Of a stretch of 64,000 bases of DNA, positions 5,448-17,530 are shown in pieces. The notes beneath the pieces are model-generated. The model saw only the letters and a list, made by a program, of their open reading frames with translations. It had not been told where the DNA came from and made no database searches. The stretch spans positions 42,874 to 106,873 of the forward strand of contig CAZEGD010000001.1 in NCBI GenBank assembly GCA_964512235.1, read 5' to 3'. The translations under genes were made by a program, and so were the position numbers. The stretch comes from an uncultured archaeon (lineage in GTDB: Archaea > Aenigmatarchaeota > Aenigmatarchaeia > CG10238-14 > SCSR01). Positions within the stretch are counted from its first letter, which is position 1, and every line of letters begins with the position of its first letter.

Positions 5448-6398
5448 ATGTTGCACGTAACAGTCGGGATATTTGGTATGCGTGAGGATGCGAACAAACT
5501 TGCATCAAGTCTGGCTAAGAAAGGAACAATTAGTGATATCGCACTCTACAGTCATACCAGTTCGGAAGGCGTAGTTACATACGTCTGCCCCAATTCTGAG
5601 AGCAATAAGATACAGCCACTGCTAGAATGTTTAAACATGATAGACTTTCCTGTAATCGTCGTTAACGAGTTGACAAAGGAGATAGGTGAGATAATAATAG
5701 CCGTAAGTGAAATGGCATTCGACAAAGGATTCTTCATTGCAGCATCTGGGATGGACGAGCCGATAAGGAGTCTGACAAAGGGCACGGTACTTGAGAATTT
5801 CACATTTGTAGATGAGAACGCTCTGAGGGTAGAAATAATGAAGATTGGAAATGATATACGAAGACCTGACAAAGCAGAAGACCCGCTGATTATGCCCATA
5901 GACAACTGCTTCAAGGTGAAGGGTGTGGGGACTATCGCACTTGGAATTGTGAGAAGCGGTGTGATAAAGAAGCATGATAAAGTAATGATAGAACCGTTTG
6001 GAAAAGAAGCCACTGTGAAGGGTATACAGTCACAGGACAACAGTCTGGAAGAGGCAGTTGCCGGAATGAGACTTGGAGTCAACCTGAGGGGAGTAGAGCC
6101 TGAAGGAATAGACAGAGGCTTCATAATATGTGGCAAAGAAAACAAAATCATCAAGTCTTCAGAGCTGAAGGTAAATCTGAAGCGCAACAAATTCTTCAAG
6201 CAGGAGCTGAAAGAGAACGTGTCAGTCATGATAAACGTGGGTCTGCAGACAGTCTCCTGTGACGTAAAATCGGTCAACGGCGAGAAAATCGCACTTTCAG
6301 CTTCACAACCCGTAGCATATACGGATGGTCAAAGGTTCATACTGGCATCCAGCAATGATATAATGCCCAAAATAATCGGAAGCGGTCAAATAGAATGA
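5448..6398 (+). CDS. EF-Tu/SelB-like translation-factor paralogue with degenerate G domain
   Basis: Domain-II-like beta-barrel string IDNCFKVKGVGTIALGIVRSGVIKKHDKVMIEPFGKEATVKGIQSQDNSLEEAVAGMRLGVNLRGV. The N-terminus VGIFGMREDANKLASSLAKKGT sits where GHVDHGKT/S is expected. No NKxD motif seen. The start codon directly abuts the helicase stop. Confidence 0.6.
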   Translation: MLHVTVGIFGMREDANKLASSLAKKGTISDIALYSHTSSEGVVTYVCPNSESNKIQPLLECLNMIDFPVIVVNELTKEIGEIIIAVSEMAFDKGFFIAASGMDEPIRSLTKGTVLENFTFVDENALRVEIMKIGNDIRRPDKAEDPLIMPIDNCFKVKGVGTIALGIVRSGVIKKHDKVMIEPFGKEATVKGIQSQDNSLEEAVAGMRLGVNLRGVEPEGIDRGFIICGKENKIIKSSELKVNLKRNKFFKQELKENVSVMINVGLQTVSCDVKSVNGEKIALSASQPVAYTDGQRFILASSNDIMPKIIGSGQIE

Positions 6399-11558: not shown

Positions 11559-11894
11559 ATGTCAAAAAGCATGTCGCTGTCTAGATTGAACAGGACATTA
11601 TATGCCAGGGTTGGCGGCAGAATCCCGAAATCTTGCATTCCCAGTAATCTTTTCGACTCAATTGAAAAGGCATTACATTTCCTCAAAGAGAGACTATCTT
11701 CAATTGACTTTAAATACGGGCCGTTGAAAGGTGACTTAAAGAGATGGAAAGATGTCCTACCTGAAGCCGAGAAGTTGATAGAAGAGCATAATGGAGGTAG
11801 CCCGAATTATGAAAGAGAACATGTGCTTGCATCACTCCAGATTTTGAACATTTACAACGGATATAAAGACCTTCTAGAGGCATACGATTCATAA
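11559..11894 (+). CDS. Hypothetical protein (111 aa)
   Basis: ORF only. Confidence 0.35.
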   Translation: MSKSMSLSRLNRTLYARVGGRIPKSCIPSNLFDSIEKALHFLKERLSSIDFKYGPLKGDLKRWKDVLPEAEKLIEEHNGGSPNYEREHVLASLQILNIYNGYKDLLEAYDS

Positions 11895-11944
11895 AGGCAT
11901 GACAGGAACAGAACTAATATACATGTTCTATCTAAGATAATTTT

Positions 11945-12748
11945 ATGGTTGACTTGAAGTTTGTGACAGATGTCTTTTCTGAAGAGGAGGCAAACGTCAT
12001 TGCAGTTAGGGTCAACTGTCCACAGTCTCTGATAGAAGCCAGTCGGATGGTCGAACCTTTTGACATTGACAGACAAAAGAATCTCTTAGAAGATGTGAAG
12101 ATTTTCGATGCGGGAGAAGCAGACTTAGACGGTGTATATAATGAGATCAAAGAAGTCATTACTGGAAAAAAGATTCCATTGATTCTTGCTGAAAGGCATA
12201 TTGCAAGCTTGGAAGCCATTCGGGCTTTACCAGAGGGTACAAAGATAGTAGTTTTTGATGCACATGCTGATCTGAAGGATGAATATTCAGAAGGCAATTA
12301 CAAACCTGTAGATGAGAAGAGAAATTATGCAACATGGCTTCGCAGAGCTTGTGAGATAATTGACCCGAAGAATGTATGCTTGATTGGAGTTAGATCGTGT
12401 GATGAGGATGAGTTTGAATTTATGAAAGACAGCGGGTTACTTTATTTTACAATTAATGATATTAAGAGTGGTGTGGAAAGCGTTAAGCAACGCCTGCAAA
12501 AATTTATAGGTGATTCATCAGTTTATGTGAGCATAGATATGGATGTATTTGACCCGTCGATTGTACCTGCTGTAGAGAATCCAGAGCCAAACGGTATATT
12601 ATATAGTGACTTTTTGCAGCTGAGTGAAGTCTTGGAGAAGATAATAGGAATAGACTTGGTCGAGATTCGACCATTAGCTAAAAACAGAGTTACAGAGTTC
12701 CTTGCAGTAAAGGTTATATTTAAGCTGTTGTCATTAATTTTTAGTTGA
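11945..12748 (+). CDS. speB: Ureohydrolase family (agmatinase/arginase-like)
   Basis: VVFDAHADLKDEY and YVSIDMDVFDPSIVPAVENPEPNGI are the Mn-binding DAHxD and SxDxDxxDP motifs. Confidence 0.8.
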   Translation: MVDLKFVTDVFSEEEANVIAVRVNCPQSLIEASRMVEPFDIDRQKNLLEDVKIFDAGEADLDGVYNEIKEVITGKKIPLILAERHIASLEAIRALPEGTKIVVFDAHADLKDEYSEGNYKPVDEKRNYATWLRRACEIIDPKNVCLIGVRSCDEDEFEFMKDSGLLYFTINDIKSGVESVKQRLQKFIGDSSVYVSIDMDVFDPSIVPAVENPEPNGILYSDFLQLSEVLEKIIGIDLVEIRPLAKNRVTEFLAVKVIFKLLSLIFS

Positions 12749-12757
12749 TTGTTAAAA

Positions 12758-12843
12758 GCGGGGGTCCGATAGTCTGGTCAATTCGGCTAGCTTGAGGTGC
12801 TAGTGGGTTAGTCCCTACGTGGGTTCAAATCCCACCTCCCGCA
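12758..12843 (+). tRNA. tRNA-Leu (anticodon GAG), type II with long variable arm
   Basis: Acceptor GCGGGGG/CTCCCGC. Anticodon stem CTAGC/GCTAG, loop TTGAGGT. Variable arm TGGGTTAGTCCCTAC. T arm GTGGG-TTCAAAT-CCCAC. Confidence 0.9.
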
Positions 12844-12897
12844 TTTAAAAAATCCCTTTGGAAAAGCTATAAATCTCTTCCCTTTCTCTATTATCTT

Positions 12898-13428
12898 ATG
12901 GTCAAAAAGGTAGCTGTATTAGGTCCATCTGGCTCGTTCTCAGAAGAGGCGGCTGTTGAGAGGTATGGGAAGGATATTATACTGGTCTATGGGAAGAAAT
13001 TTGATGACGTGTTAGATCTCGTGGAGATGGGAGAAGCGGACATTGCATTCCTTCCGGAACGGACTTCAGTGGGGGGACCAGTGTACCCGGTTCTTGATGC
13101 AATGTTGAACCATTCGCTTTTCATTACAGAAAAGTATGATTTCGAGCCGACATATTGCCTTGTTGGGAAGGGAGAGGAAAGTGACATTAAAAAGGTAGGT
13201 TCGCACCCACATGCATTGATTGCCATGAAAAAATATCTGGACAAAAACTTTCCAAATGCTGAAAGAGTGGAGACTCCGAGCACGTCCTTTGCTGCCCAGC
13301 TGGCATCAGAGAACCCGACATTCGGGGCCATAGCAAGCCGGACCGCGGCCAAGATATACAATCTGAAAGTGTTTTACAGTGTACAGTTCCCCCGGCCAAG
13401 GAATGGAAACGCACGCCTGAAGAGATAG
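12898..13428 (+). CDS. Prephenate dehydratase (PDT) domain protein, lacks ACT domain
   Basis: VAVLGPSGSFSEEAA...FLPERTSVGGPV...VGSHPHALIAMKKYL...FGAIASRTAAKIYNLKV resembles the PDT catalytic domain. The ORF ends ~15 aa after the PDT-like part with unrelated residues. Confidence 0.6.
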   Translation: MVKKVAVLGPSGSFSEEAAVERYGKDIILVYGKKFDDVLDLVEMGEADIAFLPERTSVGGPVYPVLDAMLNHSLFITEKYDFEPTYCLVGKGEESDIKKVGSHPHALIAMKKYLDKNFPNAERVETPSTSFAAQLASENPTFGAIASRTAAKIYNLKVFYSVQFPRPRNGNARLKR

Positions 13429-13497
13429 AATTTGGCATAAAGGTCAGATGAGTCTCAAAACATTTTTATAACTAAGAATTCCACCTCCCACATCATG

Positions 13498-14763
13498 TTA
13501 ATTTGCTTTTAATAGAATTCTTTTACCAGTGACATCATTTAGCAAATTTTGCAATTCTTTCAATTTTTCTTCTTTATCTTTTTGTAACCTTTTTCTTCTC
13601 TCTCCAATCATTTCATTCTCAATCTTAGTTTCTTCCATTCTTCTCTTTAGCTCATTAATCTCATTTTCCAATTTATTCTTTCTCTTTGGAACTTCCTGCA
13701 ATTCTATCCTTTCTTCTTGTCTTTCCAATTCCTCTGAAAGCCCTGAATATTCCTCAAGGATTTTTCCCATGGTATTGTCCTCTATCATCCTTTCAATAAC
13801 AGCCAAGAATTTGCCGCTATCCTTCAAATTCATCTTCCCCTCAATTATATTTGTTTTCATACCTTTGATGGCAGACATGAAAACTTCTCCCTTAGGATCT
13901 TTAGATAAAATGGATTCAAAGGAATGTTGTGCATAATCATCCAAAATTCTATTTTTAACAGACCATTTGTATTTCCTCAGGGGCTTTTCCACTTTTGCGA
14001 GAGATTGTATAAAGTCAGACTTTTTATTCTGCAGATTCATTTTCATTTCTTCTTTAATCCTCCGCATCTCTAAGAATGCCTTCCATTCATTGCCATCGAG
14101 TAATTTTTTCAACTCATCTTCAATTTTCTTATTCCTATCCTCCATTTCTTTCATTGTCTTCTCCAATTCCTTTGTTTCATCCTTCTTCAGCTCTTCTGTT
14201 AATCTTAATACTTCATTAGCAACCTCTTGCGTCCTTAGCAATTGCACGTTGGACTCTGCAAATTCTTTTACTATATTCCCCAGTCTCTTGTCTATTTCGA
14301 CTATCTGGCGGAAGCTCTCTATTACTTTATCTGCTTCCTTTTCGAACAATTCCTTCAAAAATGCATACTCTCTCACTGTTTTTGCGTTTATGATATTGAG
14401 TAATTTGGCAGTTTCATTATGGAAATTTAGGATAGAAGTCATGTCTTCTCCCATCGGTTTTTGTATTTGCTTGACCAGACTTTTCATCTTATTCGCAAAA
14501 CTCTTTCTGCTTCCCACAGCTTTTCTTATAAGCATGCGATCGTTTATTGTGGAATATGGAGCTTGTCCAAGAATTTCCAGTTGGTCTTGCATAGTATTGG
14601 CAGCCATCTGTAAGTTTGCATATTCCCTTTCAGCTGACTCTTTTAGAGGCTTGAAATCCTTTTTCATCTTCTCTGCTAGGAACCCTTCTACTTCTTTCAG
14701 CTGCATCTTCTCTTCTTCAAACTTTTCTTCTCTTTTTCCAAAAATTCTGTCTAACCAACCCAA
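13498..14763 (-). CDS. Long K/E-rich coiled-coil protein (421 aa)
   Basis: Heptad-like charged sequence throughout (e.g. EELERQEERIELQEVPKRKNKLENEINELKRRMEETKIENE). No enzymatic motif seen. Confidence 0.55.
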   Translation of the reverse strand: MGWLDRIFGKREEKFEEEKMQLKEVEGFLAEKMKKDFKPLKESAEREYANLQMAANTMQDQLEILGQAPYSTINDRMLIRKAVGSRKSFANKMKSLVKQIQKPMGEDMTSILNFHNETAKLLNIINAKTVREYAFLKELFEKEADKVIESFRQIVEIDKRLGNIVKEFAESNVQLLRTQEVANEVLRLTEELKKDETKELEKTMKEMEDRNKKIEDELKKLLDGNEWKAFLEMRRIKEEMKMNLQNKKSDFIQSLAKVEKPLRKYKWSVKNRILDDYAQHSFESILSKDPKGEVFMSAIKGMKTNIIEGKMNLKDSGKFLAVIERMIEDNTMGKILEEYSGLSEELERQEERIELQEVPKRKNKLENEINELKRRMEETKIENEMIGERRKRLQKDKEEKLKELQNLLNDVTGKRILLKAN

Positions 14764-14828
14764 TCCAATCAGAATTATGTAAGGTTATATAAAATAAAAG
14801 TTTATGTGTTCTGGAATGCTGTGTTGCA

Positions 14829-14852
14829 GGTTCAAATCCCACCTCCCACATT
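14829..14852 (+). repeat. Partial copy of the tRNA-Leu 3' end (T loop to acceptor end)
   Basis: ggttcaaatcccacctccc is identical to 12822-12840. One mismatch follows (a for g), then catt. Confidence 0.85.
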
Positions 14853-14932
14853 GTTTACAGCTGTAAATAAGAGTCCAATATTGCGGAAGGTAAGTTTGCT
14901 TTAAGATTCAAATTCAACTAATTAATAAGAAA

Positions 14933-15529
14933 TTAATTTCTAAAATTATATTTTTTTAAAAGTTCAGTATTTATACCTTCAATTAATAACTTTTCTTCCT
15001 CTGAAATTTCTCCTAATCTACCGATTTCAAAACTTAAAACAACTTTATTACCAACATATCTTTTAGGATGGTCAACAAATAAACTATAATATGAGAAAGA
15101 CGATGGAGAAGGCCAACTTAGTTGTTCATTTCTCGTCCTACAACTCAAAGTTACAAAAACATTTCCTCTATGCATTATAGCTTTAGCAATTTCTTCTGGA
15201 TTTTCTGTTTTAGCAGCCACATTTTTTATTTCAAAATTTACTTTTTCAAGATACTCTACAATTTCAAATAATTCATCTCGAAAATCTTTTTCTAATTCTT
15301 TTTGAACAGTTAATGCTGGAGTTGGCATACCTCTTGGACCAGGTGCATAAAGAACTCCGTCTTCAAATTTTATTAATTTCTCTGGTTCACCTTTTCCTCT
15401 TACATTAAAGCGTCCATACTGGAGAATGTCTGCAGAAAAATACCCAGATTTTCTACCTTCATATAAGATTTTAGGATATTCAACATGGCTTTGACCAGTA
15501 GTTAGTAAAGTACTTGTTTCTGCACCCAT
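14933..15529 (-). CDS. Hypothetical protein (198 aa) in a very AT-rich cassette
   Basis: ORF only. My hand count for 14941-15000 is 10 G+C of 60. Confidence 0.45.
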   Translation of the reverse strand: MGAETSTLLTTGQSHVEYPKILYEGRKSGYFSADILQYGRFNVRGKGEPEKLIKFEDGVLYAPGPRGMPTPALTVQKELEKDFRDELFEIVEYLEKVNFEIKNVAAKTENPEEIAKAIMHRGNVFVTLSCRTRNEQLSWPSPSSFSYYSLFVDHPKRYVGNKVVLSFEIGRLGEISEEEKLLIEGINTELLKKYNFRN

Positions 15530-15652
15530 ATTATCAAATTAATAAAGAACAGTTAAAGATTTATATATTTCCTCTAAGACCCCTTAGAGAAATCTTAAAT
15601 CTTTTCAAAACAATATAACAAAAAAGACGCACCGTACTTTTTGTTCTGTGCT

Positions 15653-15665
15653 CACCTCCCGCATT
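15653..15665 (+). repeat. Second partial copy of the tRNA-Leu 3' end
   Basis: cacctcccgcatt is identical to 12833-12845. The following gttt is shared with the flank of the 14829 copy. Confidence 0.7.
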
Positions 15666-15718
15666 GTTTTTTAGTTCTACATCAAGTTCAAGGTGGGCAT
15701 CCTAAAGAAAGTATCCTA

Positions 15719-16120
15719 TTATCCTTTCAATAGTATTTCCAACTTCATCCTTCTAAGCATCCTAGACCTTTTACCGGAGAAGATGTACAGTTCCTTTCCA
15801 TCATCAATTTCATAGAATCTGGTATTAGAGTAGTTCCCTATCACATGGTTCTGAGGATTATACTGGTTAAGGACCCTTTTGATTTTTTTGACTTCCTCGG
15901 GATACCTTGTTTTTTCTGAACCGAATCTAGGAAATGATACCTGATTTGTAGTGACGAGCAACTGAAAAGTGTACAAAAAATCTTCATCTGTAAAAGCCTT
16001 AAAAACTGAACTATCCCTGAAATCGGAATAACTTACCTCTAGATAATGTTTGTCCAGCTCATAGATTATTAGCCCCTTCAGGTCGAATATTTTATCTCCC
16101 ATATACGAGAATTCTTTCAA
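15719..16120 (-). CDS. Hypothetical protein (133 aa)
   Basis: ORF only. Confidence 0.4.
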   Translation of the reverse strand: MKEFSYMGDKIFDLKGLIIYELDKHYLEVSYSDFRDSSVFKAFTDEDFLYTFQLLVTTNQVSFPRFGSEKTRYPEEVKKIKRVLNQYNPQNHVIGNYSNTRFYEIDDGKELYIFSGKRSRMLRRMKLEILLKG

Positions 16121-16156
16121 TTAAATCTTAAATATGTAACATCCCTCGTAATATCT

Positions 16157-16882
16157 ATGCTGACCCAAGAAGAGTTGAATAAATCCTATATGAGGAGCGG
16201 TATATCCTCTGCTAAGATTTATGCACATATATGGGAATCTTTCTCAAGAGATAATGGAAAGACAAAACCAAGAGGATATTTGAGCCTATCACCTTCGATA
16301 GAGAGTTACGTTTTAGCGCAAGTTGGACATCTGAATAAGAAATTAGAGTGGAGTTCTATTGGTAAGGAAATCATGTCATTCTTCAAATGTTATCCATATT
16401 CTCCAGAGAATGTTCTAAGTTTGGGCTGTGGTATTGGCAATGGTTTAAAGACTGTGAAAAAATATGGAAGTAAACTACTTGTGGGAATTGACGTGGGTCT
16501 TCCGGTATTAAAATTGGCCAAGTCAAACTTGCCAGACGGAGATTTTGTATGTGCATCCTCCACTCATTTACCTTTTAGAGATTCAGTTTTCGACACGTTT
16601 ATAACTGGACATTTTTTTGAACCTATGACCAATCGGGAATCCAGATTTACATTTGAGGAAATCAAAAGATGCTCCATAAAAAATTGTCTATGGTTTGTTT
16701 CAGTCGAAGGGGAAGAGATTTTTGAAAGTTATCATATACAAAAATTCGGTAAGGGTGGGTGGGGTGTTATTCACAAACATCCATATATAAGCAAAGTTTC
16801 CCCAGTACCGGGTTCGGATTATAGACTGTGTGGTGCCGAATTTTTAGTCTTAAAGTCATTATACAGTGGTAATGATGAATGA
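16157..16882 (+). CDS. Class I SAM-dependent methyltransferase
   Basis: Motif I-like LSLGCGIGNG. Then GIDVGLPVLKLAK, then LPFRDSVFDTF (Methyltransf_11-like layout). Confidence 0.6.
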   Translation: MLTQEELNKSYMRSGISSAKIYAHIWESFSRDNGKTKPRGYLSLSPSIESYVLAQVGHLNKKLEWSSIGKEIMSFFKCYPYSPENVLSLGCGIGNGLKTVKKYGSKLLVGIDVGLPVLKLAKSNLPDGDFVCASSTHLPFRDSVFDTFITGHFFEPMTNRESRFTFEEIKRCSIKNCLWFVSVEGEEIFESYHIQKFGKGGWGVIHKHPYISKVSPVPGSDYRLCGAEFLVLKSLYSGNDE

Positions 16883-17287: not shown

Positions 17288-17530
17288 ATGAAAGACGAGG
17301 AAAAAGAGAAAGATGTAAAACTGGGAGAGTTTCAACTCAAGCAAGATTCCGTCCTTGTGATAAAGAAGACCACATACAAAGGCAATGAAAGGATAGACTT
17401 TCGCGTGTGGAAGAACTCACCAACATACAAAGGCCCAACTAAGCAGGGGTTTGTTCTGCAGATGGACCAAATAGACGATTTCATAGAGATGATAGAAGAG
17501 ATGAAGGGAAAGTTGAAAGAAGTGGAATAA
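17288..17530 (+). CDS. PC4/Sub1-like ssDNA-binding fold protein (80 aa)
   Basis: VLVIKKTTYKGNERIDFRVWKNSPTYKGPTKQGFVLQMDQIDDFIEMIEEM follows the PC4 C-terminal-domain pattern (KG..hDhR.W....+PTKKGhsL...Q...h). Recognised by eye only. Confidence 0.45.
   Translation: MKDEEKEKDVKLGEFQLKQDSVLVIKKTTYKGNERIDFRVWKNSPTYKGPTKQGFVLQMDQIDDFIEMIEEMKGKLKEVE

Follow-up and report, generated by a model that had tools for sequence, protein, structure and literature searches.

What has placed several partial copies of a leucine tRNA gene directly downstream of that gene in a tiny, symbiotic-type archaeon of the DPANN group (Aenigmatarchaeota)? The stretch of DNA analysed here (the window; 64,000 nucleotides (nt), G000:C1:42874-106873) belongs to an assembly of 677 kb in 16 contigs, 89% complete, with ~46 tRNA genes if introns are allowed (G000). 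A preliminary description, made from the letters of the window, had noticed two copies of the 3' end of tRNA-Leu(GAG) and had read the two intervals that they close as cassettes left by serial integrations at one tRNA attachment (att) site. We compared this locus with 69 other genomes of the family; relatives and homologues carry the name Aenigmatarchaeota. Our answer, which we consider rather probable, is that the copies mark small non-autonomous integrative cassettes, which would have been recombined site-specifically into tRNA tails and into earlier scars by an enzyme acting in trans.

Tail copies of tRNA-Leu(GAG) and the PDT-like block

A search of the window for the core CACCTCCCRCAT, allowing at most one mismatch, revealed four matches, all on the plus strand and within a span of less than 3 kb, where 0.24 were expected. 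None of 100 shuffles reached four core matches, which places the tail repeats beyond chance. The copies DR1 and DR2 (Table 1) agree in position and sequence with the preliminary description, as do the next bases, which are GTTT after both and TAAA after the tRNA itself. A third copy, DR0, had been missed; it matches the tRNA tail at 15 of 17 positions and is identical to DR1 at 13/13, including a private G-to-A change. The three repeats delimit three intervals, namely A1, the interval of a gene for a 421-amino-acid (aa) coiled-coil protein (cc421), and B, with GC contents of 44.7%, 35% and 29.9% (window: 41%). The extreme AT-richness attributed to B, with 10 G+C counted in 14941-15000, was confirmed, whereas the former 'cassette A' (12844-14828) is not one unit: DR0 splits it into a PDT block and a cc421 block.

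An Rfam search of 12600-16300 revealed no known RNA family besides tRNA. The family genomes mostly carry zero to two copies of the tRNA-Leu 22-mer, which are never clustered. The 24-mer of DR1 is identical to the last 24 nt of tRNA-Leu(CAG) in G010, so that a real tRNA of the family ends in the A-variant. This G010 tRNA (L242 2301-2386, G010:C29) ends ...CCCACCTCCCACA, which gives a C2:A71 mismatch in its acceptor stem.

Table 1. Positions and properties of the features at the tRNA-Leu(GAG) locus (window coordinates)
Feature	Position	Strand	Remarks
Agmatinase/arginase-family gene	11945..12748	+	Pfam Arginase, E=1e-44; conserved upstream anchor of the locus
tRNA-Leu(GAG), intact	12758..12843	+	ARAGORN; Rfam RF00005, 45.6 bits
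Cassette A1, 633 bp, 44.7% GC	12844..13476	+	one PDT-like gene; absent at the G069 site
Promoter-like TATAAATCT box	12868	+	25 nt past tRNA-Leu(GAG)
Short PDT-like protein, 176 aa	12898-13428	+	Pfam PDT, positions 1-159 of 181 matched
Repeat DR0, AATtCCACCTCCCaCAT	13477..13493	+	4 nt past the cc421 stop codon; repeat family D3
cc421, 421-aa all-helical coiled-coil protein	13498..14763	-	49 homologues; AlphaFold model
Upstream region of cc421 with ~45-nt block ATAAACTTTTATTTTATATAACCTTACATAATTCTGATTG	14764..14828	-	compared across G000, G010, G012, L200 and L199
Repeat DR1, 24 nt, T loop to 3' end	14829..14852	+	19 nt exact, one G-to-A change, then CATT; left boundary of cassette B
Cassette B, 800 bp, 29.9% GC	14853-15652		bounded by DR1 and DR2
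Left arm L2, perfect 14-nt palindrome TTTACAGCTGTAAA (14854-14867)	14853..14870	+	14828-14867 is 87.5% identical to G000:C3:88757-88796
Cargo of cassette B, 198-aa protein, 30.7% GC	14933..15529	-	no Pfam/PHROG match
Right arm R1	15568..15652	+	hairpin CTCTAAG-N4-CTTAGAG (15572-15589), promoter-like CTTAAATCT box (15594), GACGCACCGTACTTTTTGTTCTGTGCT abutting the repeat
Repeat DR2, CACCTCCCGCATT, 13 nt exact	15653..15665	+	right boundary of cassette B

The agmatinase gene is linked to tRNA-Leu(GAG) in G010, G069, L041, L042, L044 and L083. The gene order in G069 is agmatinase (64% identity), tRNA-Leu(GAG), 24 nt and a convergent cc421-family gene, A1 being absent; the window shows the same order plus 633 bp between the tRNA and DR0. 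Because G069 thus presents a natural empty site, with agmatinase, tRNA-Leu(GAG) and the cc421-family gene adjacent, A1 is, as read from gene order, a true insertion. Its higher GC content and the patchy distribution of its gene, found in 5/69 family genomes at 26-37% identity, point the same way. DR0, 4 nt past the cc421 stop codon, corresponds in position to the whole tRNA of G069, 24 nt past the stop there, and this correspondence identifies it as the displaced old 3' end of the tRNA gene (attR of A1). The left junction (attL) of the block is the last ~17 nt of tRNA-Leu(GAG).

The same arrangement was found in L037, an independent metagenome contig of the Joint Genome Institute from the same species, which is 99.8% identical with differences confined to 11732-11930. 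L037 keeps DR0 and reproduces the joins from the tRNA to the PDT block, to DR0 and to cc421, and this independent occurrence makes an assembly artefact unlikely for that part. The support from L037 covers the tRNA-to-cc421 part; block B is known from one assembly.

A word-based homology search with the PDT-like protein of A1 returned the protein itself only, and an exhaustive search of 1.8 billion representatives detected nearest relatives with 46-52% identity and lengths of 203-225 aa, likewise without the ACT domain and the TRF motif. Since these relatives are also short and lack both features, the protein belongs to a non-canonical short clade and is at most mildly truncated. It and its nearest relatives are probably not prephenate dehydratases.

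The coiled-coil gene between DR0 and DR1

A database look-up for the exact 421-aa protein of cc421, and likewise for the 198-aa protein of cassette B, found no entry. The cc421 homologues are ~420 aa long and 23-75% identical. The AlphaFold model of cc421 (pLDDT 88) is all helix and has no fold match in the PDB, and no sequence match was found either; the protein was rejected as a hidden recombinase on the all-helical coiled-coil model and the missing fold and sequence matches.

Members of the cc421 family lie beside agmatinase and tRNA-Leu in G069, beside o88-UMPK in G070 and near PC4 in G021 and G024, and all four of these, agmatinase, tRNA-Leu, o88-UMPK and PC4, are also neighbours in the window. 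The gene is therefore probably an old neighbour of the tRNA and not cargo, as its inclusion in 'cassette A' had implied, albeit with a history that is not cleanly vertical. Between G000 and G010 the identity is 75% for cc421 and 59% for agmatinase, between G000 and G069 35% and 64%, and the contexts of cc421 differ in G010, L200, L199 and G012.

The ~45-nt non-coding block directly 5' of the cc421 start (14764-14808) is near-identical across genera, while the proteins are only ~60% identical. It was seen in the upstream regions of L214, L215, L200 and L199 and may be a conserved leader or regulatory element. Exactly 25 nt past this promoter block, a T-loop-like 12-mer occurs in G000 (within DR1), G010 and L200, with a differing acceptor part.

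Further downstream, the PC4-like 80-aa gene of the window (17288-17530) has counterparts with 64-76% identity near the same neighbourhood in G010, G021 and G024, and this conservation marks it as a resident gene rather than part of an island past DR2. The synteny of G010 and L044 was rejected as proof that the whole interval is an island: the interval from tRNA-Leu to o88-UMPK is wholly different in these two, but the genes that it contains there are ordinary cellular ones (Ogg, ThiI, glycosyltransferases).

Conserved ends, exchanged cargo and other tRNA genes

A BLAST search of the region against the whole genome revealed that both ends of cassette B recur on contig C3. Besides the left-end match given in Table 1, window positions 15568-15670 (103 nt) are 90% identical to G000:C3:88117-88219. 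Between the two ends on C3 lies an unrelated gene for a 160-aa winged helix-turn-helix (wHTH)-like protein, in the opposite orientation relative to the ends. The left end of a B-type cassette consists of G(G/A)TTCAAATCCCACCTCCC..AT, the tRNA-Leu 23/24-mer from the T loop to the 3' end, followed by the palindrome. At the right end, an arm of ~100 nt that includes a hairpin, a promoter-like box and GACGCACCGTACTTTTTGTTCTGTGCT abuts CACCTCCCGCAT, the 12/13-nt tRNA-Leu tail.

The genes on either side of the C3 copy are yjbQ-like (UPF0047) and for a Hef-type helicase. The corresponding yjbQ-Hef spacer in six genera (G010, G015, G083, G007, G082, G081) is 25-75 nt long, uninterrupted and without tRNA-like sequence, and the G000 spacer realigns with that of G010 directly past the right repeat. 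These empty sites and the resumed alignment indicate that the whole C3 unit, both tRNA-like repeats included, is inserted DNA. On this comparison, B-type cassettes are mobile, inserted DNA that carries its own tRNA-like ends, some of it far from any tRNA. As the C3 copy was inserted with both repeats at a non-tRNA site, not all copies can be accounted for by the simple duplication of an att site in a tRNA. Of the serial integrations first proposed, the insertion scars at a tRNA attachment site stand, but the B-type cassettes do not fit a single site. In the comparison with related genomes, A1 is missing from G069 and the C3 unit from the six genera, whereas a cc421-family gene is present in G069. 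The empty-site comparators belong to other genera only. In G023 and G080 (L235, L237) an unrelated ~920-nt insert with one antisense open reading frame (ORF) occupies the yjbQ-Hef spacer, which seems prone to insertions.

The 198-aa cargo of cassette B, first described as an ORFan, has no Pfam or PHROG match but is not a strict ORFan: two clusters of homologues were found at 56-60% identity, in unrelated chromosomal contexts without repeats. A conserved gene pair across DR2 was considered and rejected, the 133-aa gene beside the 198-aa homologue in L024 being unrelated to the 133-aa gene of the window.

Exchange of cargo was also observed at tRNA-Leu(CAG) of the same genome (region as a whole: G000:C3:865-1517). 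This tRNA is followed directly by a cassette with a 165-aa wHTH gene (G000:C3:865-1430), which is closed by a short R1 (C3:865-890) and CACCTCCTGCA. The 30-nt left arm of the wHTH cassette, CTTAAATCTCTAACTTCTTTTAAAATAACC, recurs exactly after CACCTCCTGCA at C2:168510-168556, there before a 155-aa gene of no relation. Next to each of the two sites stands a 13-nt motif, TGTAGAAAAATCC, in opposite orientations.

Searches with the R1 arm (113 nt) in the other family genomes gave chance-level short matches only, and scans of viral contigs for the R1 arm, the 22-mer, the A-variant 21-mer and the L1 arm gave no matches. The 111-nt R1 arm folds better than shuffles (z = -3.25 and -2.0); its 56-nt core does not (z = -0.5).

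Tail copies in G000 are not restricted to leucine tRNAs. Acceptor-specific repeats on the same strand downstream were found at tRNA-Leu(GAG), Thr(GGT) (12 nt, +463), Val(CAC) (16 nt, +546), Ser(TGA) (13 nt, +5771) and Ser(CGA) (12 nt, +4206), and three control compartments (upstream, antisense) gave 0-1 matches each. At tRNA-Val(CAC) (G000:C3:47570-48218, minus strand), a 553-bp block precedes a 16-nt exact tail copy, TCTCCTCGGGCCCATA; besides a promoter-like AATAAATCT box it holds a single gene, whose 148-aa product has the CX5R phosphatase-like motif CESGTSRS.

Blocks of this kind were also detected outside the genus. On a 783-kb contig of another genus (L041; 11670-12800), the agmatinase-linked tRNA-Leu(GAG), which was missed by ARAGORN because of an insert in the D-arm region, is followed by one gene for a 301-aa membrane protein and a 23-nt exact copy from GGTTC. 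In another Aenigmatarchaeota lineage, represented by three samples (L199/L210/L212; L199 11910-13079, L210/L211 9918-11700), two perfect 26-nt tRNA-Leu tails bracket a block of 24-28% GC with a gene for a 353-aa flavoprotein; no tRNA gene was called near this block. It is followed by a second block with a 166-aa gene and a diverged T-arm copy, between the genes for RNA cyclase and enolase. A common compact format, with a promoter-like box, a single intact ORF and a length of 0.5-1.1 kb, recurs in at least six blocks of G000 and in three blocks of two other lineages.

An exact 25-nt copy of the tRNA-Leu(GAG) 3' end was also found ~37 kb past the end of the window (G000:C1:143838-143862; L014 5839-5863), 88 kb away. 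It falls within the 3' end of a 199-aa ORF that is AT-rich and lysine-rich and is wedged between 2-oxoacid:ferredoxin oxidoreductase and glutamate-synthase-like genes; no partner repeat was found for this copy.

That the cassettes encode no recognisable recombinase had been noted at the outset, and searches with Pfam and PHROGs detected none in any block. A six-frame search of the assembly with PF00589 revealed a single match, a 282-aa XerA-like tyrosine recombinase at C2:62.5 kb among housekeeping genes. The six-frame search with PF16795 gave no SSV (Sulfolobus spindle-shaped virus)-type integrase, its best match being the XerA-like gene below cut-off. Neither search detected an integrase pseudogene fragment. 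The Y1 (HUH) transposase profile PF01797 had no match at E<=1 in the genome, and no serine recombinase was found in the assembly.

Proposed mechanism, alternatives and known systems

We propose that the three tail copies of tRNA-Leu(GAG) are junction scars of at least two separate insertions on both sides of a resident gene. A1 would have recombined with the terminal ~17 nt of the tRNA gene; cassette DNA would have supplied a new end to the tRNA, and the former end would have been displaced as DR0. A rebuilt tRNA end with the old end pushed downstream is what site-specific integration at the 3' end of a tRNA classically yields. Cassette B, a member of a local family with conserved ends and interchangeable cargo, would have been inserted at a tRNA-like sequence upstream of cc421. 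The movement would have to depend on a trans-acting enzyme, either the chromosomal XerA-like recombinase or the integrase of a helper virus or plasmid outside the assembly. A plausible order, suggested by which variant bases stand next to which arm, would have DR1 present first, B entering DR1, and A1 entering the tRNA.

A tentative and wider extension of this proposal is a form of integron-like gene capture in Aenigmatarchaeota. Promoter-bearing single-gene mini-cassettes would recombine at the segment of tRNA-Leu from the T loop to the 3' end, and at other tRNA tails too, some of them bearing a copy of this segment at one of their ends. Their shuffling among tRNA genes, old scars and plain spacers would fall to a recombinase encoded elsewhere, perhaps the chromosomal XerA-like one.

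Whether cc421 itself is cargo decides between our proposal and three serial integrations at one tRNA att site, in which all three intervals, cc421 included, would be foreign cassettes at tRNA-Leu(GAG). The fit of DR0 and DR1 around cc421 speaks for the latter, since both share the private G-to-A change and stand tight against the gene, one 4 nt past its stop and the other just past its promoter block. So do the incongruence of the cc421 tree with agmatinase, the changing contexts of the gene and the T-loop-like relic that accompanies its upstream region in three genera. However, a cc421-family gene occupies the same agmatinase/tRNA-Leu(GAG) slot in G069, and the family occurs near o88-UMPK and PC4, window neighbours as well, which points to an ancestral resident. 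The gene is also single-copy in G000, and its GC content is not extreme. We therefore regard three serial integrations as unlikely. It is a little less likely still that the repeats are all that is left of ordinary, larger viruses or plasmids that had integrated, which once had an integrase and were deleted down to one gene each. DPANN genomes are strongly reduced, in keeping with such decay. A 5.8-kb block bounded by a 13-nt tRNA-Ser tail exists in G000, and tRNA fragments left by the integration of 9-23-kb elements are well documented in archaea (PMC9897764). Random decay would not, however, yield two cassette pairs that share both non-coding ends (87.5-100%) and carry unrelated cargo; the compact one-ORF format common to the blocks of the three lineages and the outcome of the six-frame searches, the XerA-like gene and no integrase fragment, also argue against it.

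We consider it very improbable that the repeats are no scars at all but are due to chance or to misassembly, or serve as short tRNA-like motifs, for instance as terminators or small RNAs. One could imagine a small transcript with a tRNA-Leu tail at its end, as the promoter-like box of R1 lies ~25 nt 5' of the most conserved 45 nt, a T-run follows the repeat and the 111-nt arm folds better than shuffles. Against this stand the shuffling statistics, the same layout in the independent contig, the empty sites in relatives, the ordinary folding of the 56-nt core and the lack of a match to an Rfam family.

Several observations weigh against the proposal of small cassettes moved in trans. DR1 may partly predate cassette B, given the T-loop-like 12-mer at the same place in G010 and L200, and the 13/13 identity of DR0 and DR1, which bracket cc421 precisely, also fits cc421 as a third cassette. 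The empty site in G010 lacks tRNA-like sequence and both C3 repeats lie inside the inserted DNA, which a simple att duplication does not fit. The conserved arms were found only in G000. Within the species, the comparison is with one other contig, of identical layout, and the comparators otherwise come from other genera. The searches yielded no moving enzyme, in an assembly that is only 89% complete, and neither a free or circular form nor an R1-core-L2 junction was seen.

Williams (2002) reportedly distinguished sublocation classes and two att formats of tRNA-targeting integrases. Both formats are matched here, by 22-26-nt repeats from the T loop and by 12-18-nt tail-only repeats. The locus further resembles the elements of tRNA-targeting tyrosine integrases in its intact tRNA, same-strand partial 3'-end copies and foreign composition, in the direct repeat of the 3' tail at both insert ends with the intact tRNA at one of them (DR1/DR2 and the other pairs being comparable), and in the empty sites of relatives from other genera (G069 for A1, six genera for the B-type copy on C3). 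In contrast to such elements, the inserts measure only 0.5-1.1 kb, hold a single gene and encode no integrase; several are stacked or scattered, one family combines conserved ends with swapped cargo, and one member occupies a spacer in which there never was a tRNA.

The 'suicidal' archaeal integrases of SSV-type elements have their gene split by integration. SSV-type elements are likewise archaeal and tRNA-targeting with inserts that look integrase-less, but searches with PF16795 and PF00589 found no int(N) or int(C) fragments flanking the blocks, and no ORF crosses the repeats. Integrative mobile elements exploiting Xer (IMEX) and other trans-mobilised elements have no recombinase of their own, and IMEX integrate at dif. 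The present cassettes also lack a recombinase, and the host XerA-like enzyme is the sole tyrosine recombinase in the genome; unlike IMEX, they are inserted at tRNA ends, not at dif, and no dif similarity of the repeats was established.

Archaea are among the organisms from which integrons and integrase-less attC clusters (CALINs) have been described (Ghaly et al. 2022, bioRxiv 10.1101/2022.02.06.479319 / PMC9668308). With these the blocks share arrays of ~0.5-1-kb single-gene cassettes, a recombination site at each boundary, a conserved site with variable cargo and the lack of a recombinase inside the cassettes. Unlike integrons, there is no IntI-type integrase by the array, the only PF00589 match being the XerA-like gene on another contig, and tRNA-Leu tails take the place of attC hairpins with GTTRRRY cores. 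The boundaries ...CATT/GTTTACA and ...CATT/GTTTTTT do not fit GTTRRRY, as judged by sequence reading without a dedicated attC model. The cassettes also carry their own promoter-like boxes, and one is inverted. IS200/IS605-type elements and palindrome-associated transposable elements (PATE) differ by the Y1 transposase, which is missing here; the left end does have a palindrome, and the arm has a hairpin ~65 nt from its right end. In contrast to miniature inverted-repeat transposable elements (MITE), the blocks showed no inverted repeats at their termini; their ends are direct repeats. The kind of event is thus already known; what differs is the combination of miniature size, missing integrase, conserved ends with interchangeable cargo, tRNA-like ends at a non-tRNA site and recurrence in DPANN.

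The genomes of DPANN archaea are tiny, and new genes presumably reach them mainly from hosts and neighbours, by a poorly known route of uptake. If our proposal holds, recombinase-less cassettes of 0.5-1.1 kb at tRNA tails would be one concrete route of gene gain in DPANN, used at several tRNAs and in at least three lineages, and would serve as a small model for trans-mobilised integration. The locus also illustrates that tRNA fragments can mislead annotators and that a resident gene flanked by insertions can pass for 'cargo'.

Two further observations were made in the course of the comparison. In G001, 'partial copies' of tRNA-Leu at 215-nt spacing were rejected as scars because they are three whole, intron-containing tRNA-Leu genes; this tandem trio (L016 1660-2260, G001:C4) was missed completely by ARAGORN and is followed by a small wHTH gene. 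Contig C9 of G000 (6.9 kb, 35.5% GC) holds small ribbon-helix-helix (RHH)- and wHTH-like ORFs, a lone tRNA 3' fragment near 5601 on the minus strand and three copies of a ~45-nt repeat (4072, 4988, 5231), of which a fourth lies on C8; it may be a piece of a mobile element.

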